Shown in pieces: positions 1 to 25,976 of a stretch of 58,286 nucleotides of DNA. Source of the DNA: Corallococcus sp. AB011P. GTDB lineage: Bacteria > Myxococcota > Myxococcia > Myxococcales > Myxococcaceae. The notes beneath the pieces were generated by a model. That model did no database searches, was not told where the DNA came from, and worked only from the letters and a program-made list of their open reading frames with translations. Location of the stretch: contig NZ_RAVX01000011.1 of NCBI RefSeq assembly GCF_003611605.1, positions 196,811-255,096 on the forward strand, given 5' to 3'. A program made the position numbers and the translations under genes. Position 1 is the stretch's first letter. Each line of letters begins with the position of its first letter.

Positions 1-3000
1 TTCTGCTTCAGCGAGCCCAGCTGCACCAGGTCCTCCACGCGAGGCACCGAGGCCAGCGTGGCCACGGCGGACGGCGCGGGCTTACCGAGGACCGCGCGGC
101 CGTCCGTGCTCGGCTTGGGCACCGGATCCGTGGCGAGGAAGGGCACGCGCGACAGCTTCGCCACCAGGCCCGGAGGCAGCGTGTCCGTGACGACGAGGAC
201 GCCCGCGCCTCCGCCCCCGCCGCCCGCGTGGCGCACGGTGTTGCCGCGCACCACCGTCTCGCCTCGCCAGTCGATGGCCACCTCGTGGAGCACCGCCTGC
301 GGCAGCGTGTTGCCGCTCTCCAGGAAGACGTTGCCCTTCACCACCAGCTCGCCGGAGCCCACGAAGGAGGCCACCGCCTGGCCCAGTCCGGGCTCGCCCG
401 CCGTGGGCAGGCCCGCGCAGGCGAAGAGGTGGTTGTCGGAGACCACCGTCACGGACAGGTCCGGCAAGAGCCGCAGGCCCGCCACCGCGCAGCCCTCCAG
501 CCGGTTGCCGTCCACGTCCAGCAGCGAGCCCGGATCCGTCGGTGCCTCCGTCAGCAGGTGGCCCGCCGCGCCCAGGGCGGTGATGCCGGTGGCGGTGTCG
601 CGCACGGTGTTGTCCGCCAGCCGCACGCGGCCCTGCACGCCGGACACGAAGAGGCCGTCCGCGGGCGACGGGAAGGTGTCGAAGACGGGGTCCACCAGGT
701 CTCCGGGGTCCGGCGCCTCGCCGCGCGCCAGCTGCTCCAGCGACTTGCGCAGCATGTCCAGGATGGCGTCCAGCGCCTGCATGCCGGTGACGACGGCGAC
801 GAGCGACGCGGAGACCTTGTCGGCGCGCTGGCGCAGGTACTCCTGGAGCCTCGCGACTCGCGACGCGTCGTCCTCGGCGGGGTCCAGGGCCTGCTCCACG
901 GCGCGCAGCAGGACCGCGGCGGCGTCCAGTTCGGCCGTCACCGCGCTGGATCTGGCGACGGCCTCCGCGGCGGTGGTGGCGGGCTCGTCCACCAGCAGGT
1001 GCAGGGCCTGACGCGCGGGCACGTCGCCGTTGCCGCTGGTGAGCGCGGTGATGGCGTCGTTCACGCGCTGGAGCGCCAGCGTGCGGAGCTTCCCCTGGAC
1101 GCCCGCGATGTCCAGCACGCGGTCGTACTGGGAGAGGTAGAGCTGCAACGAGCCGCTGAGCACCGGCCCCGGCGCCATGCCGCGCACCGCCAGCACCAAC
1201 GCGCCCAGGGCGGAGACCCAGCGCTCCAGCGGCTCCGCCTGCACCGGCACGGGCGGTAGGGGCGTGGGCACCGGGAGCACGTCCAGCGTCTGCACCCGGA
1301 TGCGGTCCAGCAGTCCCCGGGCGATGGACACCTGCTCCAACCGATTCTGCGGCTGGGCGATGGCGTTGATCACCGCCTGGTGCGCCTGCAACGAGAGCGC
1401 GGACAGCTCCGCGTCGCCGCTCACCAGCTCGCCCAGCTGTCCCACCGCGGTGCCGAAGGCGCGCAGCTGCTTCTCCACCGTGTCGTCGGACTCGGTGACG
1501 AGGCCCGCCGCCTGCCGGTCCAGATTCGTGGCGTACAGGCCGATGGTGGCGGTGAGCCCCTGCGCCGCGACGCGCGCGCCGTCCTCCGGCGTGACGTCCG
1601 ACGAGGGCAGGACGCCGGTGGTGAAGTCCAGCACCTGCTGGAGCGTGGCGCGCATGCGGTCCACCACCGGCTGCAGCTGGCCGCCCGTGCGCTCCACGTC
1701 GCGGTAGTCCGCCTCCACCTGCGAGGCCAGCGCGGGGTGGAGCTCCTGGAGTTGATCCGTCAGGGCGTCCTTGGACGTGCGCAGCTGCACGAGCACGTCC
1801 GTGTTGGCCGTCGCGCCCCGGGTGCCCGGCTGGAGCGGCAGCTGTTGCAACGCGGCCTGGGCGAAGGTGCCGATGATGGTCTTCTTGGGGCCCACCGCCT
1901 GGCCGATGACGGGCTGCCGCGCGCGCTGCGCCTGCGCCTCGCGCAGCAGAGCCACCTGGCTCAACGCCCCCGCCAGCATGACGATCGCGGCCAGGTCACC
2001 CGGCCCGCCCTGCACCCGGGCCAGGGCCTTGAGGAGGAAATCCTGCGTGTCGGAGGGCAGCCCCTGCACCAGCGAGTCGAAGGCGCCCTTGATGCGGTCC
2101 GCGGTGCTCGCCACGGCGTCCTTGCCGGACACGGTGGCCAGGTCGAACTGCGCCACCATGTCCCACGCCTCCTGGGACACAGGCTCCGGGGCGGTGAAGC
2201 TGGAGGCGCGCGCCAGCGACGAGCGCACCGCGTGCGAGGTCTGGGTGTGATCGTTGAAGCCCTGGGCGGTACGCAGATCCGCCACGTCCGTCACCAGCGC
2301 ATTGAGGACGGAGTCGGGCACGGTCCCCAGGTCCTCCAGCTCCACCACCAGGGTGTCGAGCGGGCCGTACAGGCCCCGGCCGATCTTCTGGCGCCCGTCC
2401 ACGTTCGCGCCCGTGTACTGCAAGAGGGTGCCGTACATGCCCACCACGGCGCCGTGCACGTCCGCGCGCTCCGGGCGGACGGTGGTGCTCGTGACACTGA
2501 GTTGCTGGAGCACCACGGTGATGGGCGGCAGCTTCACGGGCCCTGGCACCGGCGGCGGCTGCGTCGTCGTCACCGGCGCGTGCACGCCGTCCACCTCGTT
2601 GCCCTCCACGGTGATGCCGGAGCCGGACACCACCGCGATGCCCGCCGCGCGCACCTCCGCGTCCGGGAGCCCGGGCGCGCCGTAGGCCTCCGTCCGCCCC
2701 ACCTGGAGCAGCCGGTTGCCGCGCACCTGCGCCTCGTCCACGCCCGAGAGCACCACCGCGCCCCGGAGCGTCAGGCGCTCCAGCCAGCGCAGCGCCGCGT
2801 CCAGGGGGGCGCGCACGCGGGTCGTGGCGTTGGCGAGGAGCGCTTCCACGAGTGGGCGGGGACGGGCCTTCGCGTCCGCGCTCAGCACTGCCTCCAGGCC
2901 CGGGTCCAGGCGGGACAGCGCCAGCGTGTTGTCCTCCTGCGACGGCACGTCCGCGAGCGCCACCTGTTCGAAGCGGTTGTCCTCCACGCGCAGGCGCCCC

Positions 3001-6000
3001 ACCGCGCCGCCCGTGCCCCAGGTGCGCACGGCCGAGTCCCCCAGCGCGCGCACCACGTTGCCTCGGATGCGCACGTCGAACACCGGCTGCGGACCGCCCA
3101 GCAGGATGCCAAAGCCCGGTGTGGACTCGCCGTCTCCCTCGATGCGGTTGTCCACCACCTCCACGTCCGAGGCGGGGCGGCCGTTGGACGCGCCGTCATC
3201 CAGGCCGTCGCCCACGACGATGCCGGCCACCACGCCCAGCACGGACGCGGCGGGCACGGCCGGCAGGGAGATCCACGACTCGCGCACGCGCAGCGCCCGG
3301 CCCGCCAGCTGGATGCCCACCTGGAACAGGCTGTCCGACACGGCGTTGCGGATCTCGTTGCCCACGATGTCCACGCCGTCGCCCGCGACCTGGATGCCCA
3401 CGGCCGCGGAGCCGAGGATCTGATTCTCCGCCACCACCACGCGGTCCACCGGCCCCGCGAGCCCCCCTTCCGCCAGGTCCTGCACCAGGATGCCCACGAG
3501 GAAGCCCTGGATGCGGTTGCCGCGCACCTCCACGCCCGCGAGGAGCCCGTCCGCCACGTGGATGCCCGTGGTCGCGTCTCCCAGCGGCTCAAGCCGGTTG
3601 TTGGTGATGGCCAGCGCGTCCACGAACAGGCCCGCGCGCGGGAAGGACGCGAGGAAGCGCTCCGCGAGATACGGGGCATACGGCGCCACCGCGATGCCTG
3701 TCGCCGCGCCGACGCGGTTCTCGTCGATGACGATGCGCTCGCAGGTGCCCGTCACCAGCACGCCTGTCGCCTCCGAGCCGGCCTGGTTCGCCTGGATGTG
3801 GCAGCGGCGCAGCGTCACGCCGCTGGAGTCCGCCAGCGTCACCACGCCGTGCGGCAGCGCCGCCAGCGCGTCGAGCAGCGGCTTCGCCTCCGGCACGTCC
3901 TCCAGTGGCTGGCCTGGATGCTGGCGTTGAAGCTTGCGCAGTTGCACCAGCGTGGCCACCACGGAACCCGCCGCGCGGCCCTGGCCCGGGACGATGGCCT
4001 TGATGCGGTCGACGACCACGTCCACGAAGTCGGCTTCGGCGGACGGGTGCTTCACGTCGTCCTCCTCCAGCACCCGGTCGTCGTCCACCTCCGCCAGCGG
4101 CACGAAGCGCTGGCCGTTCGTCAAGGCCACGCTCGCCTTCACGGCCTTCACCACGGGCTGGAGGCCGCCGCCAATCACCACGTCCTCGAAGGGAGCCTCC
4201 ACCAGCTTGAAGTCCTCGATGCGCACGTCGCCGTCCAGGCCGCAGCGGTCCACGAAGAAGGCTCCGCCGGAGCCCTGGGTGCGCAGCTCGGTGGCCTCGC
4301 CGTCGCCCAGGAGGTGCACGGAGGACAGGTTGCGCAGCAGCACCGGGTGCTCCAACTTGTAGCGGCCGGCTCGCACGAAGATGGAGCCGCCCTGCCCGCC
4401 CATGCTGTCCACTGCGGCCTGGAGCGCCTCGTCGCCGGTGATGCCTTCGAGCAGGTCCTGGTCCACGTCGCCGAAGCTGCGCACGCCGTCGCCCACCACC
4501 ACCGTGAAGACACCCGGGCCGATGACACGCTCGGAGAGCTCCACCAATCTGTCTCGCACCTGGGCGAGCGGCAGGTAGCGCGGGCGCAGGTCCTCGAAGC
4601 TTCGCGTCGCGCCGCCTGTTACGCGCGCCAGTGGCACGCAGTGGTGCACCGGGCCGTGCACGGGCGCGTCCGTGAGCTGCTCGACTTCCCCCCGGGCCGC
4701 GCCGTCCGCCGCGCGCACTCGCACGGTGAAGGACCAGTATTCGGTCGCGCGCCCTTCCGTGTTGGCGAAGGCCAGGGTGATGCCGTCGTCGAAGCGGTAG
4801 CGCACGCCGGGCACCAGCAGGTCGCCGCCGTCCCACCGGCGCACCACCGCGCCCTGCTCCGGACTGAAGGCCCGGCCCAGCGTGCCTCCCACGGGGAGCG
4901 GCACGGGGTCGGTGGTGAGCACGGCGCTCGCGTCCGCCAGCTCCAGCGTGCCCGTGTCCGCCTGGACGCCTCGCAGCCTCCGCAGCACTGGCAGTGATGG
5001 GCCTTCCGGCTGGAGCCGGGTGACGCTGTCCTCGATGACGACGAGGTCACCCGCGCGCAGCTTCGCGGCGCTCGCGGGGGAGACCTGGAGCGTCATCGCG
5101 TCCGCCGCCGCGGCTGCGGTGAGCGGGAGCACCGTGGAGCCGTTGTCTCGCGACCACAGCACCACCGGCTGCGCGCCGCCCCGGAAGAACTCCACGCGGA
5201 AGTGGAGGTTGTCGGAGCCCGTGTAGCCTTCGCCCGTGGAGGCGTTCTCCGTGGACAGGCAGCGGTCGCGGCAGGGGTCCAGCGGCTCCGGTGGGAAGCG
5301 GTCCGGCAGCGCGCCCTTCGGGATGTTGGTTGTGAGGCGTGCGCCGCTGGTGGGCGTGGGCAGGTCTTCCGCGTCGGTTGCGGCCAGCCCCTGGAGCGCG
5401 CGCACCTGGGTGACGAGCCGCAGGCGCACGGTGGTGTCCTGGCCGTCCAGCGCGGGCTCCTCCAGGAACGCGTCGTCGTACTGGGTGGTGGTCTGCTCCC
5501 AGCAGTCGAGGAAGAAGAAGTGGTGCCGCGAGCCGTCCGTGGGCAGCGCCGCCAGCGGAGGCGCCTCTGGCAGGTCCGGCTGCGCGGAGTAGCGCAGGTC
5601 CTGCTCCAGGAAGACGCGCACGCCGTCGAGCAGCATGCGGCCCGCGCCCGGCAGCGTCCCGTCACCGCCTCTTATAATGATATCGGCGCCCAGCGCCGCG
5701 TCCTCCACGCGCAGCGCGGCCACCCACGTGCGGGCCACGGGCGGCAGGCCCAGCACTCCCCAGGAGCTCAGCTTCGCCGGGTCCACGCTCGCGAACGCGG
5801 CGACGGGGAAGCGCACGTCGTTCCAGCCCGTGGGTCGCTGGCCCAGACCGGCGGAGAGGACCGTCTCGTTCCCTTCCGTGTCCGCGACGACCACTTGCAG
5901 GTCGATGAACTCATCGTCGGTGGGCGGCCGTTCGAAGCGCAAGCTGATGACGAGCGCGGAGGCGGTGAAGGCGGTGCCGTCCGAGCGCGGCACGGCCGTG

Positions 6001-6380
6001 AGATCCAACGGCGCGGGCAGCGTGCGGCGCAGCGCGACGTGGCCCCGGCTGCGCACCACGAAGGGCAGCGTCTCCGTGTCGTAGCGGTCCAGGCGCAGCT
6101 CGCGCGGGATGGTGCGCTCGTCGTCCGCGGGCAGGCCCTGCCCCGTCCAGCCGAGCACGTTGCGGATGGGGTCCACGAGGTACGTGTCGACGATGCGGAA
6201 GCCATCATCGGGCGAGCCCTCGGCGACGTCGGCGGAGCGGCGGCGCGCGTCCACGGTGCGCAGCCGCACCTCCTCGTTCCAGTCGGCGTCGAGGCTCATG
6301 CGCCCCATCTGCTGATAGACGCCAGAGAATCGCCGGGCTTCGTCGAAGCGGGACCTGGAGGTGTACGCTTTCACGGTCAT
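1..6380 (-). CDS. Giant parallel beta-helix repeat protein; tail-fibre or host-recognition candidate and last visible gene of the tail-like operon. At least 2126 aa; the C-terminus lies beyond the window start.
   Basis: The minus-strand frame is open from the ATG at 6380..6378 (MTVKAYTSRSRFDEARRFSGVYQQMGRMSLDADWNEE...) to position 1. It is missing from the ORF track only because there is no stop codon in the window. Codon third positions are almost all G/C; for example the reverse complement of 1..41 reads RVEDLVQLGSLKQ. The long plus-strand ORFs over this region (1380..4997, 228..1259, 5202..6575) have G/C at codon position 1 and an R/H/Q/A-rich composition, so they are antisense shadows. 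The protein carries many V-x-x-N-x-I/L and G-x-x-V-x-G repeats (VDNRIEGDG, VEDNRFEQV, VEGNEVDGV) typical of right-handed beta-helix (PbH1) proteins. Its start overlaps the stop of the upstream gene (ATGA at 6377..6380). Confidence 0.6.
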   Translation of the reverse strand, partial: MTVKAYTSRSRFDEARRFSGVYQQMGRMSLDADWNEEVRLRTVDARRRSADVAEGSPDDGFRIVDTYLVDPIRNVLGWTGQGLPADDERTIPRELRLDRYDTETLPFVVRSRGHVALRRTLPAPLDLTAVPRSDGTAFTASALVISLRFERPPTDDEFIDLQVVVADTEGNETVLSAGLGQRPTGWNDVRFPVAAFASVDPAKLSSWGVLGLPPVARTWVAALRVEDAALGADIIIRGGDGTLPGAGRMLLDGVRVFLEQDLRYSAQPDLPEAPPLAALPTDGSRHHFFFLDCWEQTTTQYDDAFLEEPALDGQDTTVRLRLVTQVRALQGLAATDAEDLPTPTSGARLTTNIPKGALPDRFPPEPLDPCRDRCLSTENASTGEGYTGSDNLHFRVEFFRGGAQPVVLWSRDNGSTVLPLTAAAAADAMTLQVSPASAAKLRAGDLVVIEDSVTRLQPEGPSLPVLRRLRGVQADTGTLELADASAVLTTDPVPLPVGGTLGRAFSPEQGAVVRRWDGGDLLVPGVRYRFDDGITLAFANTEGRATEYWSFTVRVRAADGAARGEVEQLTDAPVHGPVHHCVPLARVTGGATRSFEDLRPRYLPLAQVRDRLVELSERVIGPGVFTVVVGDGVRSFGDVDQDLLEGITGDEALQAAVDSMGGQGGSIFVRAGRYKLEHPVLLRNLSSVHLLGDGEATELRTQGSGGAFFVDRCGLDGDVRIEDFKLVEAPFEDVVIGGGLQPVVKAVKASVALTNGQRFVPLAEVDDDRVLEEDDVKHPSAEADFVDVVVDRIKAIVPGQGRAAGSVVATLVQLRKLQRQHPGQPLEDVPEAKPLLDALAALPHGVVTLADSSGVTLRRCHIQANQAGSEATGVLVTGTCERIVIDENRVGAATGIAVAPYAPYLAERFLASFPRAGLFVDALAITNNRLEPLGDATTGIHVADGLLAGVEVRGNRIQGFLVGILVQDLAEGGLAGPVDRVVVAENQILGSAAVGIQVAGDGVDIVGNEIRNAVSDSLFQVGIQLAGRALRVRESWISLPAVPAASVLGVVAGIVVGDGLDDGASNGRPASDVEVVDNRIEGDGESTPGFGILLGGPQPVFDVRIRGNVVRALGDSAVRTWGTGGAVGRLRVEDNRFEQVALADVPSQEDNTLALSRLDPGLEAVLSADAKARPRPLVEALLANATTRVRAPLDAALRWLERLTLRGAVVLSGVDEAQVRGNRLLQVGRTEAYGAPGLPDAEVRAAGIAVVSGSGITVEGNEVDGVHAPVTTTQPPPVPGPVKLPPITVVLQQLSVTSTTVRPERADVHGAVVGMYGTLLQYTGANVDGRQKIGRGLYGPLDTLVVELEDLGTVPDSVLNALVTDVADLRTAQGFNDHTQTSHAVRSSLARASSFTAPEPVSQEAWDMVAQFDLATVSGKDAVASTADRIKGAFDSLVQGLPSDTQDFLLKALARVQGGPGDLAAIVMLAGALSQVALLREAQAQRARQPVIGQAVGPKKTIIGTFAQAALQQLPLQPGTRGATANTDVLVQLRTSKDALTDQLQELHPALASQVEADYRDVERTGGQLQPVVDRMRATLQQVLDFTTGVLPSSDVTPEDGARVAAQGLTATIGLYATNLDRQAAGLVTESDDTVEKQLRAFGTAVGQLGELVSGDAELSALSLQAHQAVINAIAQPQNRLEQVSIARGLLDRIRVQTLDVLPVPTPLPPVPVQAEPLERWVSALGALVLAVRGMAPGPVLSGSLQLYLSQYDRVLDIAGVQGKLRTLALQRVNDAITALTSGNGDVPARQALHLLVDEPATTAAEAVARSSAVTAELDAAAVLLRAVEQALDPAEDDASRVARLQEYLRQRADKVSASLVAVVTGMQALDAILDMLRKSLEQLARGEAPDPGDLVDPVFDTFPSPADGLFVSGVQGRVRLADNTVRDTATGITALGAAGHLLTEAPTDPGSLLDVDGNRLEGCAVAGLRLLPDLSVTVVSDNHLFACAGLPTAGEPGLGQAVASFVGSGELVVKGNVFLESGNTLPQAVLHEVAIDWRGETVVRGNTVRHAGGGGGGAGVLVVTDTLPPGLVAKLSRVPFLATDPVPKPSTDGRAVLGKPAPSAVATLASVPRVEDLVQLGSLKQ

Positions 6381-9300
6381 GGTCGGCTCATCCGGACGAG
6401 GTCGTCCTGGCTGCGGTCGGCGTGGAAGGGCGTGATGCCAATGGGCATGCTGTCGTCGGTGCGCGCCTGGAGTTCGCGCTCGTGGTTGGAGCGCTCGTCG
6501 TGGGCACCGGGGACTCCGCCGCGCTCGGAGGCGTGGAGCGCTTCGGGGCCGTTGTTGTCGCCCAGGACGAGGTAGCCCGGGTCCGTCTGGCGGTTCGACT
6601 GGAAGGACACGGTGTGCACCCGCGACTGGTGCGACACCGGAGGCTGTCCACCGCGCGCGAGGAGGCTGTAGCGCAGCCAGCCCAGGTCCGGCCGGTCCGT
6701 GCGCACCTCGCCCGCGAAGGCGCAGGAGGACGCCTCCAGCACGCCCGCCTCCGTGGCGCCCAGCACCGTGCAGTGCCGCAGCCGAACGCTCGCGCCCGCC
6801 GCGCGGATGGCGACGGCGTCACGGTCCCCCGCGTCGAAGGTGCAGCCCGCGGCGATGAGGTGCACCCAGGGCGGCAGCTCGATGGCGCCCACCATGCAGC
6901 CGTAGAGGCGCAGCTCCACATCAGCGGGAGGCAGGGAGCGCCGCGCGCTGATGTCCTGGTGCCCACCGCCGGGCATCCACAGTCCCACCTGTCCGGGCGC
7001 GCCCAGGCTGCACCAGCGCAGGTCCGCTTGCCCCCGAGCGAGCACCAGGTCCAGCCGTCCCGCGAGCCACAGGCCCGCGAGCCACACACGCGTGGCCGCG
7101 CTGCCTCCGAAGCCCGGGTAGAGCGCCAGCGAGAGGCCGTGCTCGTCCGCGCCGATGCAGGGCACCGCGCCCGTGTCCGCGGCGAAGAGGGACAGCCCGT
7201 AGTCCAGCCCCTGTGACAGGCGCTCCGGAGCCAGACGCGGCGAACCGATGAGGCCCAGAATCGGCGGCGATCCGGCTGGGCTCTCTTCTGCGAGGTTCGC
7301 GATATCCGGCGGCACCTGACCTTCAGTCGCGACCACCGAGGACGCGCCGGAGTCGAGACCTTGTGCGCCGACCGAGCCGATGGGTCGCGCCTGGCCTCCA
7401 GTCGCCAGCACCACGGACGCGCCGGAGTCGAGACCTTGCTCGATGGTCGCGACGATGGGCCGCTCCTGGCCTCCGGCCGCCAGCACTCCGCCCGCGCGCT
7501 CCGGGGAGATCCACGCGGTGACAGGGAGGCCGGTGCTGGAGCGGTCGCCAGGACGGTCCGGTGGGTCGATGAATGGGAAGTCCGGCTCCGCCCACGCCGC
7601 GGGCGGACGGCGGTCCGGCGGAAGCAGCCCCGCTCCCAATGAGGCGCCCCGCCCTACCCGCGCGGAGAGGGTGACGCGGCCCACGGGCGCGTCGTCCTGG
7701 AGCACGACGCGGCCCAGGCGCGGATCCACCGCGACGATGCCGGAGGCGATGCTCGGAGCGAGCGTCGTCCACGGGCCCAGGCTTCGCTGGCGCAACTGGA
7801 ACGGATGGCGCCGCAGCCGTCCGGGCACCGAGTAGCGCCGCGCGCCACCTGCGACGGAGGCATCCCGCGAGTGGTACGCGCCACCGGGCCGGGAATCGAG
7901 CGGGAGCGGCTGGCCCTCGCGAGGCTCGATGAACGCGGCGCCGTCGTTGGCGACGTTGAAGCGCAGGAGCTCATCCGGGAGCAGGGCCAGCTCTGGCAGG
8001 AACGCCAGGTAGCCGCGTCCGCCCAGTGAGAAGACGACCTCCGACGCGGGCAGCGGCGCCGGATCCACGAGGAGCACGCGACCATCGACGTACAGCGCTT
8101 CGCCCGGAACCGGCGGGTTCGAGCCCGAGGGCTCCAGCAGTCCCGCGACCCAGGCACCCTCGCCTGCCTTCAGCGTCATCCATTGAGGACGCGTCGTGTC
8201 CGCCCAGACAAGCGCCTCCACGCCGTCGGCGGTGGTGGTGGCCACGAGCGTGCCGGGCAGGTTCGCGGTGATGGGCAGCGGGGCCAGGGAACGCCAGACA
8301 GGGCTCGCGGAGGCCGGGTCGCAGGACATCACCGGCACGGCCAGTTCTCCCGTCACGGCCTCGCCGCCCAGGAGCATCAGTCCTTGCGCCGTGCTCAGCA
8401 GCGTCGCGGCCTTGCGCTCCTGGCGGTTGCGCACCGCATGGGGACGCCACGGTCCGCCCGTGACCGGCAGCGACCAGAGGTCTCCGGTGGGCGCGCCACC
8501 CAGGTCACCGCCAAAGACGAAGAGCCGGCCGCCGCGCACGCACAGGCTGGGGGCCAGTCGCGCCGCGGGCTGCCGGGGGCTCGTGGTGTCCAGCCGCGTC
8601 CCCGTCGGAGTCGCGGTGTCCAGGCCTGTCACCGACCACACACCCAGCTTCCCCGTACCGTCAGGTGCCACCAGCAACAGCGAGTCGCCAGCCGCGGCCA
8701 GGGACATACCGGGACCCTCCGGAGGCAACGCGCCGCTGAGCTCCGCCACCTGCCATGGCGCACCGTCGGCGCTCGCGTCGAAGCGGGCAAGGCGCAGGCT
8801 GCCGTCCGCGAGGTGTTGCTCGATGCGCGCGACCCATGCCGCACCGGCCAGGTCCACACGGACGGCGTTGCTGCGCGGAGGCCCCTGGCGCAGGCCCACG
8901 GCGAGGGTGCGCCACGTACCGTCCACGTCGCGCAGGCGCGGATCACCGCTCACGCGTTCGACGAGCAGCGCCGCCGTGGTGCCGCCCAGGAGCTGGTTCG
9001 CCTCCGGCGTGACGGTGACGGTGTTCAGGGCGTCCGACACCAGCTCGGTGGACAGGAGCACCGTGTCCGAGTTCTCACGCGCGGCGAGCAGCGTCAGTCG
9101 CCAGGTGTCTCCGGGCGAAGGCCTGCCCCGGTCCGCGAACCGCAGCGTGGGCGCGGGCCCCACGGGCGCGGTGGGCAGCGGTCCGCGCAGGAGCGGCAGG
9201 GCTTCCGGCCCCACCAGCGGAATGCCGTCGACGGAGACGGTGATGGCATCCGCGCGTTCGGCGGCGTCGGCGTCCTCGGCCAGCGCGGTGGGGGTGAGCA

Positions 9301-19496: not shown

Positions 19497-19705
19497 CCGT
19501 TGCCCCGGGCGCCGGCCGGCTCGCGCTGGGCGAGGCTCCGGGCAATGGCTTCGTTGTTCTTGTCCATCAGCGCCACCATCGTCTGGGTGAACAGCTTCAC
19601 GAACTCCTTGGGGTCATCCGGCACGCTGCGCAGCATCCACGCGAGCTCACGCTCCATCTCGCGACGGGTGAGTCCGACCTGTCCTTGCACCGGGGGTGGG
19701 GCCAT
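19493..19705 (-). CDS. Small helical hypothetical protein (70 aa) in the tail operon.
   Basis: High GC3. It is translationally coupled to the downstream gene. A GAGAGGA Shine-Dalgarno sequence lies 9 nt upstream. It is in the same frame as the upstream 291-aa ORF, separated by a TGA-C stop plus 6 codons. Confidence 0.45.
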   Translation of the reverse strand: MAPPPVQGQVGLTRREMERELAWMLRSVPDDPKEFVKLFTQTMVALMDKNNEAIARSLAQREPAGARGNG

Positions 19706-19723: not shown

Positions 19724-20599
19724 TCAGCTCCAGCCATCCACCAGCGGACGGCCTTCCAGCTCGTTGCGAAGCAGCTCCAGGTAGCGCCACCGCCGGGCCC
19801 TCGGCAGGGACAGGATGTCCGCCTCAGACCAGTGGTAGTGGAAGGCCAGCACGTGCACCTCTGTCTCCAGCCGCGCCGCCCCGCCCCGCAGCTCGCGAGC
19901 CAGCAGCGCGAACGGATCCAGCTCCAGCTCCAACCACGCGGAGCACCTCGGACAGCGCGCCAGCAGCCCCAGGTCCGGCGCGGACGTGCCGTCCGCCAAC
20001 GCCAGCGCCACCGCGTGCCGTGAGCGCGCGGGCAGCGCCAGCCACGCGGAAGGGCTCAGCGCCTGCCCGTCCACCACCACCAGCCGCGACCACATGAGCG
20101 CGGACCGCTCCGCCCGCGTGCCATGCGCCTCCGCGAGCAGCGCGTCGTCCTCGCCCGTGGGCTCACGCACCTCCGCCCGTCCCTCCGGCAACGCCACGGT
20201 GAGCACCTCCGGCGCCGCGTCCACCCGCTCCGGTGAGAGCGCGGAGAGCCGCACGTCCACGTCCGCCATCGCCTCGCATCCGGGCGCCGGGCAGCGCGCC
20301 ACCAGCGCGACGCGGTCCCCGTACATCCGGGCCCGCAGGTGCAGCGCCAGGTGGTGCCGGTCTCCGCGCGTGAGGCAGGCCGCCAGCTCCGCGTCCACGC
20401 GCGGGTAGTCCCCCAGCCGTCCCAGACACGCCGCCAGCCACCCGCTCACCGCGCGCGGGCCGGGACGCTCGCCGGCCTGGGCCAGCGCCCACTCCTCGCG
20501 GCCGGTGAGCGGGCGCAGCTCGCCCAGGCGGTGACAGCGGCCGTCCTCGTCGAAGAGGCCGTGCGGCAGCAGCACCGGGATGGGAGGTTCCAGGAGCAC
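19724..20599 (-). CDS. Hypothetical Cys-motif protein (291 aa) downstream of the tube genes; possibly an assembly factor.
   Basis: High GC3. Cys pairs at CPAPGCEAM and CPRCSAW suggest a zinc-ribbon-like site. No family was recognised. Confidence 0.5.
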   Translation of the reverse strand: MLLEPPIPVLLPHGLFDEDGRCHRLGELRPLTGREEWALAQAGERPGPRAVSGWLAACLGRLGDYPRVDAELAACLTRGDRHHLALHLRARMYGDRVALVARCPAPGCEAMADVDVRLSALSPERVDAAPEVLTVALPEGRAEVREPTGEDDALLAEAHGTRAERSALMWSRLVVVDGQALSPSAWLALPARSRHAVALALADGTSAPDLGLLARCPRCSAWLELELDPFALLARELRGGAARLETEVHVLAFHYHWSEADILSLPRARRWRYLELLRNELEGRPLVDGWS

Positions 20600-20600
20600 G

Positions 20601-21092
20601 TCAGACCACCGGCTCCAGCGTGAAGCCCTCGTGCTGGACCTCCAGTTGCTCGATGATGATCTCGTTCGCCTCCGCGGCCAGCTCCGACATGGCGGTGAAC
20701 TTCGAGACCCACGCGTTGCGCAGCACGAACTTCTTCACCGCGCGGTTGAAGTCCAGGTCGAAGACCAGGATCTCCACGGTGCGCCGGAAGTCCGGCTCCG
20801 CCGCGCGGAAGCCGGGCGTGGCCTCATGGCGGATGAGCTGGGTGGCCCAGTCCCGGAACGTCGTGTCCTGGGTGAGGCCCGCCTCCAGCGTGAGGGGCTC
20901 GTAGTGCACGCGGCCCGGGGACAGCTCGTCCACGGAGGACGGGCTGTTGCCGGAGCGGAACTTCACCACCTCCACGGTGCCGGTGAGGCCGGAGATCTTC
21001 CGGCACGCGGCCACCTCGATGTTGTTGAAGAGCACGCGGAAGTTGAAGTTGCGGTACGGGTCGCGCTTCGTGGATTCGACGAATCGGGGCAT
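20601..21092 (-). CDS. Tail tube protein (T4 gp19 or Afp5-like), 163 aa.
   Basis: DPYRNFNFRVLFNN...RNAWVSKFTA matches the gp19 / eCIS tube signature (NFrv..., NAWvsk). Confidence 0.8.
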   Translation of the reverse strand: MPRFVESTKRDPYRNFNFRVLFNNIEVAACRKISGLTGTVEVVKFRSGNSPSSVDELSPGRVHYEPLTLEAGLTQDTTFRDWATQLIRHEATPGFRAAEPDFRRTVEILVFDLDFNRAVKKFVLRNAWVSKFTAMSELAAEANEIIIEQLEVQHEGFTLEPVV

Positions 21093-21116: not shown

Positions 21117-21680
21117 TCAGGGCGCCGGGAGGCTCGTCGTGGGCGTGGACAACACGGGCCGGGGCACCGGCTCCCAGCCCTCGTGGGTGAGCTCCAACGT
21201 CAGGAGCGCCACCTCGCCCGCCATGGCGTCCAGCTTGGGCAGGGCGTGGAGCTTGCTCACCCACGCGTTGTGCACGTGGAAGCTGCGGATGCGCGCCGCC
21301 ATGCCTCCGGGCGGGGGCACGTCCGTGGGGTGCGCCCAGGCGTCCCACACGTCGAGGAAGAGGTCGCGCTTCACCGGCTCGCCGGGCGCCTTGCCGGTGC
21401 GCGCGAACTCCAGCACCGCGCGCGCCCAGCGCTCCAGCGTGTCGTCCAGCGCCAGCCCCTGCTCCAGCACGAGCGGCTCCCAGTTCACCTTGTGGGGCTG
21501 GGCGTAGCGGTGCAGGTTGTTGCCGCCCTCCCAGGTTTCGTACGCGCCCACGCTGACGGACAGGCCGGACACGGTGCGCACTCCCGCCACGTAGTCGCCG
21601 GCCGCGGACGTGCTCATCCGGAGCCGGAACTGGAAGGTCCGCAGCGGGTTGCGGGCGTTGGCGGGGACGGGCGTGGGCAT
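21117..21680 (-). CDS. Tail tube protein (T4 gp19 or Afp1-like), 187 aa.
   Basis: NPLRTFQFRLRM...HNAWVSKLHA. It is a paralogue of the gene at 20601..21092. Its start overlaps the sheath stop (ATGA). Confidence 0.8.
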   Translation of the reverse strand: MPTPVPANARNPLRTFQFRLRMSTSAAGDYVAGVRTVSGLSVSVGAYETWEGGNNLHRYAQPHKVNWEPLVLEQGLALDDTLERWARAVLEFARTGKAPGEPVKRDLFLDVWDAWAHPTDVPPPGGMAARIRSFHVHNAWVSKLHALPKLDAMAGEVALLTLELTHEGWEPVPRPVLSTPTTSLPAP

Positions 21681-24007
21681 CAGGCCGCCAGCAGGCTCTT
21701 CTGGCTGATTTCGATGACCACGAACTCCGCGGGCTTCAGCGGCGCGAACGCCACCTGCGCGGTGACGATGCCCGCGTCCACGTTCTCCTGCGGGTTGGTG
21801 CTCCGGTCGCAGACGACGCTGAAGGCCTCCTCGGGCGTGCTGCCCTGGAACGCGCCCTGCCGGAAGAGCCCCAGCATGAAGGACTCGATGGCGACGCGGA
21901 TGCGGCCCCAGAGCTCTTCGTCATTGGGCTCGAACACCGCCCACATCAGGCCGCGCCGCAGGGACTCCTTGAGGAAGAGCGCGGTGCGGCGCACCGGGAT
22001 GTAGCGCCACTCGGGTTCCGGCCCCAGCGTGCGCGAGCCCCACGACACCAGCCCCACGCCGGGGAACTGGCGCAGGCAGTTGAGGCTCACCGGGTTGAGC
22101 AGGTCCTGCTCCGCGTCGATGACGGGGTACTGGAGGCCCAGCGCGTTGGCGAGGGACGCCTCGATGCCGGCGGGCGCCTTCCACACGCCGCGAGTGGTGT
22201 CCGTGCGCGCGAAGAGGCCCGCCACGTGGCCGGACGGCGGCACCAGTCGCGTGGGGTTGCGGCCCACGCCCACGGGGTCCGCCACGCGGATCCACGGGTA
22301 GAACATGGCCGAGTTCTTCGAGCGTGAAGGCAGTCCCTCCACGAACTGCTTCGCGTCGTCCGGCACCACCGCGAAGTCCTTGTCCACGCCGCCGGGTCCG
22401 TCCGCGAGGAAGAAGCAGTCGCCCCGGTTGTCGCAGTACGCGACGCCCACGGCGATGAACGACACCTCGTTCTTGCCGGGCAGCGCCACGATGTTGACGT
22501 CCTCCGTGTCCAGCGCGTGCAGGCCCGTGCGCAGCTTCGCGTCGCCCGCGAAGTCGGACGTGTCCAGGAGGCCCGCGCCGTCGTCACCGCCCAGAAGCCG
22601 CAGGTTCGTCACCGCCGCCGGACGCACGACGGGGTTCGCGGGCGAGTCGTCCGAGTAGCCCCGGGCGCGCGGCGCGAAGCCCAGCTGCCGGAGCATGGTG
22701 GGCACCGTGGGCTGGAGCGTTTCGCTGATGGAGAGCTGGAGCCCGTCGAAGGACTCCGCGCCCATGCCCGCCGTTCCAGCGGCGGCGGTGCCAGTGAAGC
22801 CGGTGGCGGAGAGCGACAGCGTGGAGGTGCCCGCCGCCGTGGCCAGGCCCGTGATGACGGTGTTGCCCTGCGCGTCCGTCACCACCGACGCGACCCTGCC
22901 GGCCAGCGCCACGCTCAGCGAGTGGTTCAGCTCCGCGGGAGTCACCGCACCAGCGTTGGCCGCCAGGATGGGGATGGGCACCACCGTGGTGGCGCCCGGC
23001 GGTCCCACGGTGACCTTGGCGTCCTCCGGGTCCAGGTCATACGTCGCACCCGCGGGCTTGGGGATGGTGAGCGTGGGCCCGGTGGCCACCTTCAGCGAAA
23101 TCTCCGGCGAGTCCGTGCCGCTGATGACGAAGGTGTTGGTGAGGCCCGCCGCGGTGACGGCCTGGGAGAGGAAGGCCTTGAGCTCCGTGGCGGTCAGCTG
23201 CACGCGGCCGTTGACGAACGCGGCGCCCGGCACGGCGGCCACCACCAGGGCCTGGGTGATGGGGACGTCCAGCACCGTGCGGGGCAGGTCCGGCTGGGCC
23301 TCGTCCCAGGTGGAGACCTGGAGCTTGCCGCCGTCATAGAGGCTGTACTTCGTGCTGGCCAGCACGGCGGCCTTGAGCCGGGGAGGCACGCCCGGGACGA
23401 GCACCGCGCCGGGCGCCCGAGCGGCCAGCGCCACCTGGAACTCGTCGCGCACGCGAATGTAGCGGGAGATGTCGTTGATGCGGTCGCCGACGTAGTCCTC
23501 GCTGGACGGGTCCATGCGCACGTCCTCGAACGCCTCCAGGCGTCGCGTGGCCCCGGCCTCCGTCCACGTCACCTCCACGCGGAACGCCTCGCTGGGGAAG
23601 TTGATGGAGTCGCTCACGTTGACGCGGAGGTAGTCGGACCACTCGCCCGCGCCTCGCGCCAGGAACGTGAGGGCGCTGAGGCTGCCGCCCGCGCGTGAGG
23701 CCAGGGGCGCGGACACGCCGCCCACCGCGTCGGAGGGCAGCACGCGCACGACGTAGGCGCGCCGTCCTCCCGAATCGAAGAAGGCCTCCACCGCCTGCGC
23801 GACGAGGCCCGCCTCTCCGGGCTCGTGGCCACCAAAGGCCCGCTCGTAATCGGCGAAGCCGGTGACGAACTGAGCCAGGGCCGGGATGCCTCGCGCCGTG
23901 CGGCCGACGAACGCCGCCGTGGACGTGCCCACCCCTTCGATGGGGCGCGCACCGGCACTGATCTCCTCGACATAGACGCCTGGATGCAGTCGCTCAGCCA
24001 CGTTCAT
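21680..24007 (-). CDS. Contractile tail sheath protein (gp18 / FI / Afp2-4 family), 775 aa.
   Basis: The N-terminus HPGVYVEEISAGARPIEGVGTSTAAFVGRTARG...FVTGFADYERAFGG is the canonical Phage_sheath_1 signature (PGVY.EE...gvsTstaafvG...f.sw.eF...FG). Confidence 0.9.
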   Translation of the reverse strand: MNVAERLHPGVYVEEISAGARPIEGVGTSTAAFVGRTARGIPALAQFVTGFADYERAFGGHEPGEAGLVAQAVEAFFDSGGRRAYVVRVLPSDAVGGVSAPLASRAGGSLSALTFLARGAGEWSDYLRVNVSDSINFPSEAFRVEVTWTEAGATRRLEAFEDVRMDPSSEDYVGDRINDISRYIRVRDEFQVALAARAPGAVLVPGVPPRLKAAVLASTKYSLYDGGKLQVSTWDEAQPDLPRTVLDVPITQALVVAAVPGAAFVNGRVQLTATELKAFLSQAVTAAGLTNTFVISGTDSPEISLKVATGPTLTIPKPAGATYDLDPEDAKVTVGPPGATTVVPIPILAANAGAVTPAELNHSLSVALAGRVASVVTDAQGNTVITGLATAAGTSTLSLSATGFTGTAAAGTAGMGAESFDGLQLSISETLQPTVPTMLRQLGFAPRARGYSDDSPANPVVRPAAVTNLRLLGGDDGAGLLDTSDFAGDAKLRTGLHALDTEDVNIVALPGKNEVSFIAVGVAYCDNRGDCFFLADGPGGVDKDFAVVPDDAKQFVEGLPSRSKNSAMFYPWIRVADPVGVGRNPTRLVPPSGHVAGLFARTDTTRGVWKAPAGIEASLANALGLQYPVIDAEQDLLNPVSLNCLRQFPGVGLVSWGSRTLGPEPEWRYIPVRRTALFLKESLRRGLMWAVFEPNDEELWGRIRVAIESFMLGLFRQGAFQGSTPEEAFSVVCDRSTNPQENVDAGIVTAQVAFAPLKPAEFVVIEISQKSLLAA

Positions 24008-24017: not shown

Positions 24018-25976
24018 TCAGATGGTCCCGCGCCTGGCGGTATCGACTTCGGTGACGGATGTTCCCGGGTGGCCGCTGGCGCCTCGCGCTGCGCCCCGCG
24101 CGATGAGGTCCAGCTGGGGCGTCTCGACGAGGCGGGCGGTGGTGCGCGCGTTCGGCTCGTCCATCAGCGCGGAGACCCGGTAGTCCACGCAGCAGCGGTA
24201 CAGGTGGTTCAAGAGGTCGTCGCGGCGGCGCAGCTGCGTCTGGAAGAAGAAGCACTCCTCCTGGAACACGAGCGTGCGGCCCCGGGCCCAGGCGCCCTCC
24301 ACGGGGCGGCTGAGCGTCACGGTGTCGCCGTCCAGCCCCAGCACCAGCGCCTGGAAGCGCTGCTTGCCCACGCGGTAGCCGTCCTCGCTCGACCCCAGCA
24401 CCACCACGTCGCCGGGCTTGAGGCGCGAGGCCGCGGTGACAGAGCGGCGCAGCGCGGGGTCCAGCGGCCCCACGGGCTCCGCCACCAGGTGCACGTGGTC
24501 CACCGTGAAGTCCAACGGCGTGCCCGCCTGCGCCCCCAGCGTGAGCACCATGTCGCTCGCGGCGACGGTGACGCCCGGCGCGGCGACGGGCGGCGCGGGA
24601 GTGGCGTCCACGTCCTGGAGCGGCTGCGGCGCCCCATCCGCCGACAGCCACACCACGCCCTCCCCCGCCTCCAGCCGCGCGTGCAGCACCACGCCGGCCT
24701 CCAGCCGCTCCGCCGGAAGCCGCCAGCGCGTCTCCGCGACCTGCGTCCCGGGGGCCTGCGCCAGCGTCGCGGTGGCCACCACCTCGCCCATGAGCCGGGT
24801 GTCCACCTGCACGTAGCGGACGATGAGCCGCAGCACGGGCTGCCCCTGCGCCATCAGCACGGCCACCGGCAGCGTCTGCGCATCCACTGCGCCAGCGGCG
24901 ACGCTCAGCCCCAGCGACAACGCCAGCCCGTCCGGGGCCGGATTGTCGGCGTGGAAGGGGTCGGGCACGGCCGGCATGGGGTAGACGAGGACGGAGGCGG
25001 TGCCGGTGCCGGACAGGCGCAGGCCGTCGGTGCCGGGCAGGAAGGACGCGCCGGGCGTCAGGTCCACACGTCCGCCGCGCGCGCGCTCCAGGTTCTGGTC
25101 GCTGGCCTCCAGGTGCACCAGGGACAGGACCGTGGTGGGCTCACCGCGCGTCAGCAGGCGCACCGTCGTGGCGCCTTCGGGCACGTCCTCGGCCAGCAGC
25201 GACGGGCGCAGCACCATCTGCCCACGCGTGGGGATGGAGAGCGCCAGTGTGTCCATGATGGACGCCAGGTCCACCTGCGAGCCCGCCCACAGGTCCACCT
25301 GCACGTCGATGGCCATGGCCTTGGGCGCGCGGATCTTGCTGAGGAACACCCGGCCCTCTTGAGAACGCTCCGGAGGCTCCAGGCCCAGTGCTCCTTCGAT
25401 GCCGCCGGTGACGGGCAGCACCTCCACGCTGGAGCGGAACTCCATGGAAGGGATGCCCGCGTCGGAGCTGAGCGCGAGCCGGCTCCCCTCCACGTCCCAG
25501 CGCGCGATGACGGCGGCGAGCGCCTCCAGCAGCAGGGGGTCCGTGAGCGGCGCGCCCGTGGGCTCCTGGAAGAGTCCACCGGTGAGCGCGTCCGCCAGCC
25601 GCGCGTTGATGGCGGCGGCGAGCGCGGGGCCGGTCGCGGCGGAGGCAAACGAGCCACCCGGCAGGCCCGTGAGGGTGACGGTGGCGCGGCCATCCAGGCG
25701 CAACTGGAGCGAGCCATTGGGGGGCACGCTGTCCCCGGAAGCGCGAGGCCTGCCGACGAGGTAGCCCGGCACGCGGAAGGTGGCGACGCCCGTGCGGCCG
25801 TTCTCGCGCTCGGGTTCGGGGAACAGGCCCAGCGGACCGACGACGGAGAGGAACGGCACGCGCGAAGGCCGGTAGCCCTCATCCACGTAGCCATGCGCGG
25901 CGAAGACCCGCACGTCGCCGCTGCGCAAGGCCATACGGCCCTGCCATAACAAGCCGCTGAGGATCTCGCGAATCAC
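24018..25976 (-). CDS. Hypothetical beta-rich protein (652 aa) and first gene of the tail-like operon. Function unknown; not recognisably a tape measure, ATPase or cap protein.
   Basis: High GC3. It lies 10 bp upstream of the sheath gene. Its composition is G/V/T/L-rich and non-helical. No family was recognised. Confidence 0.55.
   Translation of the reverse strand: MIREILSGLLWQGRMALRSGDVRVFAAHGYVDEGYRPSRVPFLSVVGPLGLFPEPERENGRTGVATFRVPGYLVGRPRASGDSVPPNGSLQLRLDGRATVTLTGLPGGSFASAATGPALAAAINARLADALTGGLFQEPTGAPLTDPLLLEALAAVIARWDVEGSRLALSSDAGIPSMEFRSSVEVLPVTGGIEGALGLEPPERSQEGRVFLSKIRAPKAMAIDVQVDLWAGSQVDLASIMDTLALSIPTRGQMVLRPSLLAEDVPEGATTVRLLTRGEPTTVLSLVHLEASDQNLERARGGRVDLTPGASFLPGTDGLRLSGTGTASVLVYPMPAVPDPFHADNPAPDGLALSLGLSVAAGAVDAQTLPVAVLMAQGQPVLRLIVRYVQVDTRLMGEVVATATLAQAPGTQVAETRWRLPAERLEAGVVLHARLEAGEGVVWLSADGAPQPLQDVDATPAPPVAAPGVTVAASDMVLTLGAQAGTPLDFTVDHVHLVAEPVGPLDPALRRSVTAASRLKPGDVVVLGSSEDGYRVGKQRFQALVLGLDGDTVTLSRPVEGAWARGRTLVFQEECFFFQTQLRRRDDLLNHLYRCCVDYRVSALMDEPNARTTARLVETPQLDLIARGAARGASGHPGTSVTEVDTARRGTI

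Follow-up and report, generated by a model that had tools for sequence, protein, structure and literature searches.

AAA+ ATPase genes, whose products act in payload loading or recycling, and cap genes are the usual hallmarks of contractile injection systems (CIS) such as the one analysed here. Among the closest described systems are the T6SS-like CIS of Halogeometricum borinquense (Hbor; clade IIa; PMC11566945; PDB 9EZM) and the Streptomyces CIS-Sc (clade IId; PMC10066040; PDB 8BKY/8BL4/9GTP), whose genes are named cis1-16 and which acts within its producer, in the cytoplasm. Two Cis11/J paralogues, together with the lack of a typical tape measure, are known from haloarchaeal and Streptomyces CIS (PMC11566945, PMC10066040). 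Baseplates combining Tail_P2_I with a DUF6519 fibre were catalogued in 2026 as a "previously missed" eCIS subtype (Nat Commun 2026, PMC12923769). That paper also defines eBAP5 and describes DUF6519 fibres, held by Tail_P2_I adaptors, as target-binding fibres of eCIS. It covers fibres only: the ATPase has 0 occurrences in the main text, and the first gene of our locus is not described.

Gene Content of the Locus

We analysed a window of 58,286 nucleotides from Corallococcus sp. AB011P. GC3 frame analysis and ORF listing place 14 consecutive genes on its minus strand, from position 25976 to 1:

24018..25976, minus: g1, 652 aa (638 aa by the NCBI start), no known family, ConA-like beta-sandwich inside
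21680..24007, minus: g2, contractile sheath, 775 aa, large inserted surface region; Phage_sheath_1 2.5e-11, Phage_sheath_1C 6.8e-10
21117..21680, minus: g3, tube paralogue 1, 187 aa; Phage_T4_gp19 1.7e-19
20601..21092, minus: g4, tube paralogue 2, 163 aa; Phage_T4_gp19 1.7e-29
19724..20599, minus: g5, 291 aa, T4 gp26-family "baseplate hub assembly" protein carrying a fused DUF6760-like helical tail
19493..19705, minus: g6, 70-aa helical protein, Afp6/Cis6-like by size and position only
18768..19496, minus: g7, tube-initiator-like (Afp7 N-terminal-domain type); CIS_tube 3.4e-6, right at the curated cut-off
18479..18757, minus: g8, LysM/gpX-like small baseplate protein, 92 aa; Phage_tail_X 9e-4 and LysM 3.6e-3, both sub-threshold
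17292..18479, minus: g9, baseplate hub (gpD/gp27-like half of VgrG), 395 aa, without spike domain; Phage_GPD 2.9e-4, sub-threshold
16918..17292, minus: g10, gp25-type wedge or sheath-initiator protein; GPW_gp25 5.4e-14
13154..16921, minus: g11, Baseplate-J/gp6-like, Cis11a-like, 1255 aa, long repetitive N-terminal extension; Baseplate_J 2.6e-7, TIGR02243 2.3e-37
10656..13157, minus: g12, second Baseplate-J/gp6-like protein, Cis11b-like, 833 aa; TIGR02243 7e-43
10169..10655, no strand: non-coding gap, 487 bp, array of 25-nt palindromes AACCTGTCCGAC-N-GTCGGACAGGTT
6377..10168, minus: g13, Tail_P2_I (gpI-like) fibre adaptor with Kelch beta-propeller, 1263 aa; Tail_P2_I 4e-7, TIGR02242 1e-4
1..6380, minus: g14, giant fibre, N-terminal DUF6519 (eBAP5) baseplate anchor (4e-9) and right-handed Beta_helix (7.7e-11), cut by the window start

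The full operon measures 35-38 kb with at least 22 genes, and this region makes up its 5' two-thirds. The visible part of g14 has 2126 aa, against 2534-2584 aa in orthologues, leaving about 408 aa of fibre beyond the window start, and orthologous loci continue with at least 8 further genes. The tight packing remarked on in an earlier, sequence-only reading is evident at seven of the 13 junctions, which overlap by 1-4 nt (ATGA, TGATG or GTGA); five others are spaced by 1-24 nt and one is the 487-bp gap. The genes are all intact and translationally coupled, and the GC and GC3 of the locus are host-like.

The same reading had called a contractile particle operon, and Pfam and NCBIfam matches to sheath, tubes, gp25, J, Tail_P2_I and DUF6519 agree with it. 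Of its core calls, profile searches supported sheath, tube, gp25 and J directly, while the gpD call is sub-threshold in g9 itself and is backed by a strong Phage_GPD match of the orthologue in locus L010 and by a phrog_52 tail protein match (2e-5). In the S. clavuligerus CIS, the "late control D" protein occupies the position of g9. Orthologues of g7 are likewise assigned to CIS_tube, and those of g8 match Phage_tail_X. The proposed pair of Baseplate_J paralogues is confirmed by TIGR02243 on both g11 and g12; orthologues of g11 have 1181-1502 aa and the Hbor counterpart 1064 aa, and g12 matches the J-like baseplate protein of PDB 9GTP at 4e-6. The Kelch match of g13, at 28.5 bits, is far under the gathering score of 50 bits set by Pfam.

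The 291-aa product of g5 had been listed as an unknown, but its membership of the T4 gp26 family corrects this; it probably serves as a G/GT-type chaperone in tail or hub assembly. No family match was obtained for g6 in the profile searches made, and the gene is kept in all syntenic loci with 41-62% identity. The first gene, as had been noted, falls in no recognisable family. It is a candidate lineage-specific structural protein, and from its position alone we would guess at a neck, terminator or decoration role.

The palindrome array (0 matches expected by chance) occupies the g12/g13 gap, which has no Rfam match. Its motif recurs at the equivalent junction in L002 and L003 only, and the gap is missing in Minicystis and Micromonospora. 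The array, which precedes the fibre module, may be an operator or an internal promoter.

Genes Past the Window Start and Missing Components

The reported lack of a gp5-like needle is a window-edge artefact: in orthologous loci a spike with Phage_base_V and gp5_C is encoded about 2 kb beyond the edge at position 1. The gene adjoining the spike encodes d3, a conserved helical protein of about 540 aa with homologues almost all of 484-609 aa. A weak tape-measure PHROG match makes d3 a weak tape-measure candidate. It has no similarity to PDB or BCD7 tape-measure proteins, and its N-terminal helices are strongly hydrophobic, so that a membrane adaptor would fit too. The statement that no tape measure is recognisable holds for a typical one and is weakened by d3. 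The downstream d4-d6 are conserved unknowns, of which d5 is variable and Pro/Arg-rich.

Neither an AAA+ ATPase nor a DUF4255 cap occurs in six syntenic loci (Myxococcota, Actinomycetota, metagenomes), genes past the window start included, and no locus protein contains Walker A, AAA or DUF4255. The absence of both, claimed earlier from the window, looks real at the level of the locus; the two genes could lie elsewhere in the genome. The Corallococcus locus also lacks PAAR, as had been stated and in contrast to Hbor. Capsid, terminase, integrase and lysis genes are absent from the window and from about 9 kb past it in orthologues, in line with the remark that no holin or endolysin is nearby. Given this absence of head and lysis genes and of terminase and integrase, the earlier view of a stand-alone locus and not a prophage tail stands.

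Comparison with Described Systems

The best PDB matches of the g2 sheath are Halogeometricum Cis2 (9EZM, 8e-89) and Streptomyces Cis2 (8BKY/8BL4, 1e-81). With Hbor the locus has in common a split hub (VgrG/Pvc8 family) and gpV spike, gp25, two Cis11/J proteins (one above 1000 aa), a gpI-like "phage tail protein", a gp26-like protein and DUF6760 following the tube, and the lack of a typical tape measure. However, the AAA ATPase, DUF4255 cap, PAAR, DUF4157 proteins and 6-TM anchor gene of Hbor are all five missing from the Corallococcus locus, which has in addition g1, d3-d6 and the DUF6519 giant fibre, absent from Hbor, and in which the spike gene has moved 3' of the fibre. The Streptomyces CIS shares the two tube paralogues, the J match and the lack of a typical Afp14 tape measure, but has no tail fibre, and the related plasmid CIS of S. 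clavuligerus carries DUF4255, unlike our locus. The baseplate periphery is of the Tail_P2_I and DUF6519 (eBAP5) fibre type: as in the catalogued subtype, a DUF6519-led fibre lies directly 3' of the Tail_P2_I gene and has a beta-helix shaft.

Canonical clade I eCIS (Afp/PVC) likewise have a sheath, T4-gp19 tubes, an Afp7-like initiator and LysM, gp25 and J, and a small Afp6-sized gene at the place of g6. In contrast to them, the locus encodes a single sheath where they have three, its VgrG is split and its fibre anchor different, and it is without Afp15 ATPase, Afp16 cap, Afp12, PAAR and an Afp14-type tape measure (CIS_TMP). R-type pyocins and phage P2 tails resemble it in their separate gpD hub and gpV spike, gpX/LysM, gpW/gp25, gpJ and fibre-bearing gpI, as well as in having no ATPase and no DUF4255. 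The locus differs in its T4-gp19 tubes (P2 has FII), in the lack of a gpE/E'-tape-measure block between tube and baseplate and of a lysis cassette or regulator module, and in that gpU/R/S-type completion proteins were not detected.

Proposed Assembly and Action

We favour, at a probability of about one half, a stand-alone, single-shot, tailocin-like extracellular contractile particle as the product of this operon. Since AAA+ ATPase and DUF4255 cap are both missing, it would be an R-type-tailocin-like puncturing particle released by the producer, rather than a toxin-loaded one of the Afp/PVC kind. What the analysis shows is gene content, synteny and family assignments; each step of assembly, the extracellular release and the target we infer. 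The hub would comprise g9 (gpD/gp27-like) and the separately encoded gp5/gpV spike from downstream, outside the window, with g8 (LysM) and the g7 tube initiator added to it. Wedges would form from gp25 (g10), the gp6/J paralogues g11 and g12 and the gpI adaptor g13, which would bear g14 as trimeric giant fibres. From the hub the g3/g4 tube would extend, aided by the gp26-like chaperone g5, with the helical d3 possibly acting as a ruler inside the growing tube, and the g2 sheath would polymerise round it. The lineage-specific g1, d4 and d6 may provide termination or neck functions. The Kelch and beta-helix fibres are predicted to bind glycans on the target cell surface; binding would trip the baseplate, and sheath contraction would drive spike and tube through the target envelope in one shot.

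Against the tailocin-like reading count the lack of a lysis or release module in the locus, the failure to identify a terminator or cap gene there, and the nature of the nearest experimentally characterised sheaths, which belong to membrane-anchored archaeal and cytoplasmic Streptomyces systems and not to released particles. The weakness of the d3 tape-measure assignment and the chance that ATPase and cap genes are located outside the locus count against it too. A cytoplasmic or membrane-anchored CIS, with T6SS-like contact-dependent action or a role in regulated cell death, would accommodate these sheath relatives, the baseplate make-up seen in Hbor too, and the lack of lysis genes, and the hydrophobic N-terminal stretch of d3 could anchor it to a membrane. 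Nevertheless, the fibre and adaptor together exceed 3,700 aa, and their Kelch, beta-helix and eBAP5 domains, read as target-binding, have no counterpart in the cytoplasmic Streptomyces system; the locus encodes neither a homologue of the 6-TM Hbor anchor nor any other transmembrane protein; and the ATPase for recycling is missing. We consider this alternative possible but unlikely.

It is doubtful that the locus is part of a canonical toxin-delivering eCIS (Afp/PVC-like) whose Cis15 ATPase, Cis16 cap and effectors are encoded elsewhere, possibly shared with a second eCIS. Split loci are known (PMC6899500), eBAP3-type loci of Corallococcus genomes are listed in the eCIS catalogue, so that a second system could supply parts, and the conserved d4-d6, with the variable d5, could be cargo. 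However, none of the six syntenic loci, in three phylum-level contexts, contains an ATPase or cap gene, dependence in trans would have to survive horizontal transfer, and the locus has no DUF4157 and no known toxin domains.

A decaying prophage tail module is very improbable. In its sheath, tubes, gp26-like protein, LysM, J and spike the locus comes about as close to the tail of Bacillus phage BCD7 (sheath 40% identity, 5e-72; gp26-like 2e-19; same order of sheath, tube, tube and gp26-like protein) as to known CIS, but BCD7 has a 1736-aa tape measure directly after its gp26-like gene and head and packaging genes, where Corallococcus has a 70-aa gene and no head genes. The Corallococcus genes are intact and coupled, with host-like GC and GC3, and an order of 20+ genes persists across phyla with no head, terminase, portal or integrase gene in it.

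Lineage and Neighbourhood

The full gene order recurs in Minicystis and Micromonospora and on two metagenome contigs, with different flanks. The locus represents a lineage that is compact and has spread horizontally (Myxococcota, Actinomycetota, soil metagenomes) within the clade II CIS/T4-gp19-tube radiation, conserved, unstudied and without the usual ATPase and cap genes. The suggestion of an undescribed system goes too far, given that the J pair and tape-measure lack are known (PMC11566945, PMC10066040) and the fibre subtype is catalogued (PMC12923769); what we have is an uncharacterised variant, not an undescribed kind of system. Corallococcus is a soil predator. As for the T6SS said to lie about 6 kb away, its genes do start at that distance, at 31944; this neighbourhood is strain-specific and is not conserved with the particle locus.

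Operon Structure and Gene Assignments

The window holds a real contractile injection system (CIS) locus, as the sequence-only reading had rightly recognised. The GC content of its first 26 kb is 72-74%, and the raw ORF lists are consequently full of spurious frames. Third-position GC, on the other hand, delineates a single unbroken series of minus-strand genes running from 25976 to position 1, comprising 14 genes (g1-g14) once the starts are adjusted. Seven of the 13 gene junctions overlap by 1-4 nt (ATGA, TGATG, GTGA), five are gaps of 1-24 nt, and one, between g12 and g13, is far longer.

The gene list proposed in the sequence-only reading (sheath, tubes, initiator, LysM/gpX, hub, gp25, two J proteins, gpI, and fibre) is backed by Pfam and NCBIfam. 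The sheath protein g2 contains Pfam sheath domains and matches Pvc2, Afp2, and Afp3 in the PDB at 1e-38 to 1e-42. In Pfam, the tube proteins g3 and g4 match Phage_T4_gp19 (1.7e-19 and 1.7e-29), the tube initiator g7 matches CIS_tube (3.4e-6), and g10 matches GPW_gp25 (5.4e-14). The J paralogues g11 and g12, of 1255 and 833 aa, match TIGR02243 (e-37 and e-43), and g11 matches Pfam Baseplate_J (2.6e-7). The LysM/gpX match of g8 is below the Pfam threshold, and the Phage_GPD match of the hub g9 is under the cut-off in the window gene and stronger in orthologues. The gpI-like g13 matches Tail_P2_I (4e-7), with a weak match to a Kelch propeller, and overlaps the giant fibre gene g14 by 4 nt. The N-terminus of g14 matches DUF6519 at 4e-9, above the curated cut-off and aligned over profile positions 5-51 of 593 only; its orthologues match the same family. 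The g14 protein also contains a right-handed beta-helix. No Afp12-type gene was found.

The g12-g13 junction contains the following features:

10169-10655, 487 bp separating g12 (the second J) from g13 (gpI), the sole large non-coding gap in the operon
10374-10398 and 10514-10538, 25-nt palindromes

The two palindromes are near-perfect copies of AACCTGTCCGAC-N-GTCGGACAGGTT, spaced 140 bp, and are accompanied by half-sites. Three copies of the motif lie at this junction in Corallococcus interemptor (L002) and C. exercitus (L003), and the 21 fetched loci have it at no other place; in Minicystis and Micromonospora the gap is missing. A known RNA was rejected, as Rfam gives no match. The gap may be an operator array or an internal promoter for the fibre module.

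Genes beyond the Window Start

Species-representative genomes were scanned with the last 400 aa of g14 in view as the query. Orthologous loci were found in seven other myxobacterial records, of which six are Corallococcus species and one is a Myxococcaceae MAG, and Micromonospora gave a syntenic locus. In the orthologous loci the fibre extends for ~408 further residues and is followed on the same strand by genes for proteins of 113 aa, 69 aa, 395 aa (the spike, d2), 64 aa, ~540 aa (d3), and ~720 aa (d4), and then by further small or low-complexity proteins. The spike combines a Phage_base_V OB domain (6e-24) with a gp5 C-terminal beta-helix and is seen only in these loci beyond the window; the initial impression that a gp5-like needle is lacking was thus due to where the window is cut. 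The hub g9 and the spike d2 divide the VgrG function between them, the same split that is seen in P2, Mu, and T4.

Homologues of d3 are nearly all 484-609 aa long, with one outlier of 432 aa. The protein is rich in Ala and Leu, with a strongly hydrophobic stretch at residues 66-99 and amphipathic C-terminal helices. It is perhaps a candidate ruler, the one direct support being a weak match to a tape-measure PHROG (phrog_305, 4e-4); a membrane adaptor is a conceivable alternative role. Homology to the tape measure of Bacillus phage BCD7 was rejected (hhalign probability 0.1%), as was homology to any solved tape measure, all PDB profile matches being compositional (apolipoprotein and synuclein helices).

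The stretch on the 3' side of the conserved d4 (C. caeni locus L014, 13785-17155; C. exercitus locus L003, 18156-20331) encodes a Pro/Arg-rich, low-complexity protein of 407 aa, followed by a conserved protein of 243 aa. The 407-aa protein has diverged much faster than its neighbours, with 42-76% identity among Corallococcus species versus 80-95%. C. caeni alone additionally encodes a protein of 354 aa that has a GHSQG motif of the lipase type and matches alpha/beta-hydrolases weakly. These proteins could be cargo or effector candidates.

Missing ATPase and Cap, and the Proteins g1 and g5

Afp15 and Afp16 are two of the eight core eCIS components and occur in >85% of loci (Chen et al., PMC6899500). 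Geller et al. include AAA and DUF4255 in their core domains; Afp16 is one of the eCIS-specific cores (Afp12, 13, 14 or 16) by which they exclude R-type pyocins. In the lineage studied here, no AAA match to Pfam (Afp15) was obtained for the window genes or for the upstream and downstream genes of six syntenic loci; no Walker A motif is conserved in the locus, and none is present in the extra downstream genes. No Pvc16_N match (Afp16) was detected at E<=10, and a four-sequence DUF4255 alignment gave hhalign probabilities <4% against g1, the 70-aa g6, and d1-d6, the genes past the window start. The early observation that no AAA+ ATPase and no cap are in view extends to all the syntenic loci examined, by Pfam, motif, and profile-profile tests. 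Distinguishing marks of the lineage are the lack of both throughout, g1, a relocated spike, and several conserved genes for unknown proteins.

The g1 family is closed: when 1.84 billion representatives were searched with a profile, only 67 clusters emerged, all of one architecture. The protein is a lineage-specific, lectin-domain first gene product and, by position, a candidate for the terminator. The idea that g1 is a DUF4255 cap with a large insertion arose from inspection of its termini by eye and from where DUF4255 lies in the Streptomyces clavuligerus locus. It was rejected on the available evidence: 31 family members and 10 chimeras joining the N- and C-terminal parts gave no Pfam match, and the hhalign probability was 1-4%. 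A divergent sheath paralogue was also rejected: three members have weak DUF3383 matches, and hhalign against the sheaths of the lineage gave 0.2%.

Residues 19-234 of the gp26-like g5 align in frame with BCD7 gp090, and residues 234-289 align with a -1-frame extension whose end lies immediately ahead of the BCD7 tape-measure gene. Because this arrangement is that of G/GT-type tail assembly chaperones, we infer that g5 is probably a fused chaperone-like protein. In BCD7 itself (L015), gp090 (20683-21608, gp26-like, annotated as hypothetical) seemingly has an unannotated -1-frame C-terminal extension at 21432-21608. This extension and the DUF6760-like tail of g5 are homologous, and the layout matches that of a G/GT tail assembly chaperone made by programmed frameshifting.

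Relation to Known Systems

Compared with the eight-component core of dbeCIS (PMC6899500), the Corallococcus locus has the tube, sheath, Afp9 gp25, and Afp11 J proteins. Afp7 is represented by two genes, g7 (CIS_tube) and g8 (LysM/gpX, below threshold), and the Afp15 ATPase and Afp16 cap are absent. As to Afp8 VgrG, which is split, the Phage_GPD match of the hub g9 is under the cut-off and the spike half is seen in orthologous loci only. A 2026 paper (PMC12923769) presents the attachment of fibres through Tail_P2_I and DUF6519 (eBAP5) as an eCIS subtype overlooked until then, and the locus shares with this subtype a DUF6519 N-terminal fibre directly 3' of the Tail_P2_I gene and the lack of Afp12. 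In contrast to R-type tailocins of P2 descent, it has neither a P2 FII tube nor a gpE/E' chaperone and tape measure between tube and baseplate; its tubes are of the Phage_T4_gp19 family and that interval holds the gp26-like protein and the 70-aa gene. It also differs from them in having no holin/endolysin lysis cassette in the window or within ~9 kb downstream in orthologues, in agreement with what had been noted for the window.

In the annotated cluster of Halogeometricum borinquense (Hbor), as here, hub and spike are separate genes, J occurs in a large and a small version, gp25 and a gpI-like protein are encoded, and the tube is followed by a small protein and DUF6760. The Hbor and Streptomyces CIS have no typical tape measure, and Hbor has two cis11 genes (PMC11566945, PMC10066040). 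The two J paralogues and the missing tape measure, first taken as non-canonical, are thus lineage traits already on record. Nor is the locus an undescribed kind of system; it belongs within clade II CIS as an uncharacterised variant of the recently catalogued Tail_P2_I/eBAP5 subtype.

Phage tails are about equally close. The gene order of BCD7 is sheath, tube, tube, gp26-like, and tape measure, then gp25, J, and fibre, and its sheath is 40% identical to g2. A crude NJ tree of sheath C-termini, with too few taxa to separate phage from CIS ancestry, groups the lineage tightly, next to a Mycobacterium plasmid CIS and BCD7. An unannotated megaplasmid CIS of Rhizobium leguminosarum (pRL23b7, L024, 12001-25700) is 48% identical in the sheath C-terminus and 45% in gp25. 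There the spike adjoins the hub, an interval of ~7 kb occupies the tape-measure position, and no g1 homologue is present. Because this locus retains both arrangements, the relocation of the spike and the empty tape-measure slot are derived in the Corallococcus lineage, for whose rearrangements it is a useful outgroup.

A Conserved, Probably Mobile Module

The contigs located through homologues of g1, g5, and d3 belong to Minicystis rosea, Micromonospora pattaloongensis, and two metagenome assemblies. All four keep one gene order from the g1-like first gene to the second J paralogue, and in Minicystis and Micromonospora this order runs on through the gpI/Kelch adaptor, the DUF6519 giant, the spike, d3, d4, and d6. 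The flanking genes differ in every syntenic case. The regulators adjoining g1 vary as well (sigma-54 activator, LuxR response regulator, or PAS kinase) and seem to have been recruited independently; the one in the window is:

26723-29164, plus strand, multi-PAS histidine kinase, divergent from g1 and also a neighbour in C. coralloides DSM 2259

The differing flanks and regulators point to an autonomous module that moves horizontally.

Proposed Mode of Action

The reading we favour, at a probability of roughly 0.5, is tailocin-like puncturing by released, single-use particles assembled in the manner of phage tails. The hub, spike, LysM protein, and initiator would nucleate the tube, and gp25, the J paralogues, and gpI would form the wedges, with gpI bearing the eBAP5-anchored giant fibres. 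Tube growth would be guided by the chaperone-like g5 and perhaps also by d3, the sheath g2 would envelop the tube, and a terminator, for which g1 is the positional candidate, would close it. Domains of the Kelch, beta-helix, and lectin types speak for external-surface recognition, and the missing ATPase speaks against both Afp/PVC-like payload loading and T6SS-like recycling; taken together they favour puncturing.

The main rival, which we regard as unlikely, is a cytoplasmic or membrane-anchored mode like that of the nearest characterised relatives. The best solved sheath relatives of g2 are Hbor Cis2 (9EZM, 8e-89), part of a clade IIa system that is archaeal, T6SS-like, and membrane-anchored, and Streptomyces Cis2 (8BKY/8BL4), from a cytoplasmic system of clade IId. 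A hydropathy scan found hydrophobic stretches only in g11, g14, and d3, of which only residues 66-99 of d3 are transmembrane-like. The same scan found no multi-TM anchor in the locus, either like the 6-TM Hbor_38620 or like CisA/Sco4242, and the Corallococcus locus differs from these clade II CIS in this respect and in its giant fibres.

Improbable in our judgment is a canonical eCIS with a split locus. The ATPase and cap could possibly be supplied in trans from elsewhere in the Corallococcus genome, and related plasmid clade II loci (S. clavuligerus, Hbor, Mycobacterium JS623, and Kitasatospora) do carry DUF4255, two of the four (Hbor and Mycobacterium JS623) with an ATPase or ATP-binding gene as a neighbour within the examined stretch; both components are missing from every syntenic locus of the lineage that was examined. 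A decaying prophage is very unlikely: capsid, portal, terminase, and integrase genes are absent from the flanks, as are lysis genes, both in the window and, on the side away from the kinase and T6SS, in orthologues, where conserved unknowns and then unrelated genes follow, so that the original view of a stand-alone locus stands.

Beyond released, puncturing particles, we tentatively suggest, as a possible but doubtful extension, that the lineage represents a separate, ATPase-independent way to build a free contractile particle, derived from clade II CIS or from BCD7-like phage tails. The DUF4255 cap would have been replaced by the lectin-domain g1, the spike and ruler genes shifted behind the fibre, and the product would be a glycan-targeted killing device of predatory myxobacteria and actinomycetes. 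Were this so, neither Cis15 nor Cis16 would be needed for a working CIS, and particles, if made, would show how tube termination and assembly can proceed without ATPase and cap. Large-scale catalogues of eCIS hold both as core, the cap being among the markers that distinguish eCIS from tailocins and phages, and a conserved cross-phylum lineage without either would be missed or misfiled. The locus would be a concrete candidate weapon for research on myxobacterial predation, beside the T6SS, and its very large lectin/beta-helix fibres could serve as binding modules for retargeting.

The Neighbouring T6SS

31944-48928, T6SS cluster (Pfam), ~6 kb from the CIS operon

The cluster encodes a DUF4280 PAAR-like protein, a short TssF, TssG, TssE, TssB/C, TssK, DotU/TssL, an IcmF-like TssM, and a lipoprotein with an IglE_N domain, which was first described in the Francisella system. 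Its position ~6 kb from the operon, beginning at 31944, is as first described; Pfam recognised no Hcp, VgrG, or ClpV among the ORFs scanned in this stretch. A functional link with the CIS operon was rejected, the adjacency being missing in C. coralloides DSM 2259. Directly after the lipoprotein gene, at 48938-54808, lies a gene for a 1956-aa protein with many Ig-like repeats of the HYDIN/ASH/DUF1573/Cep192 type. The GC content falls to ~0.63-0.65 over 50-58 kb and at 38-42 kb, compared with ~0.72 elsewhere.
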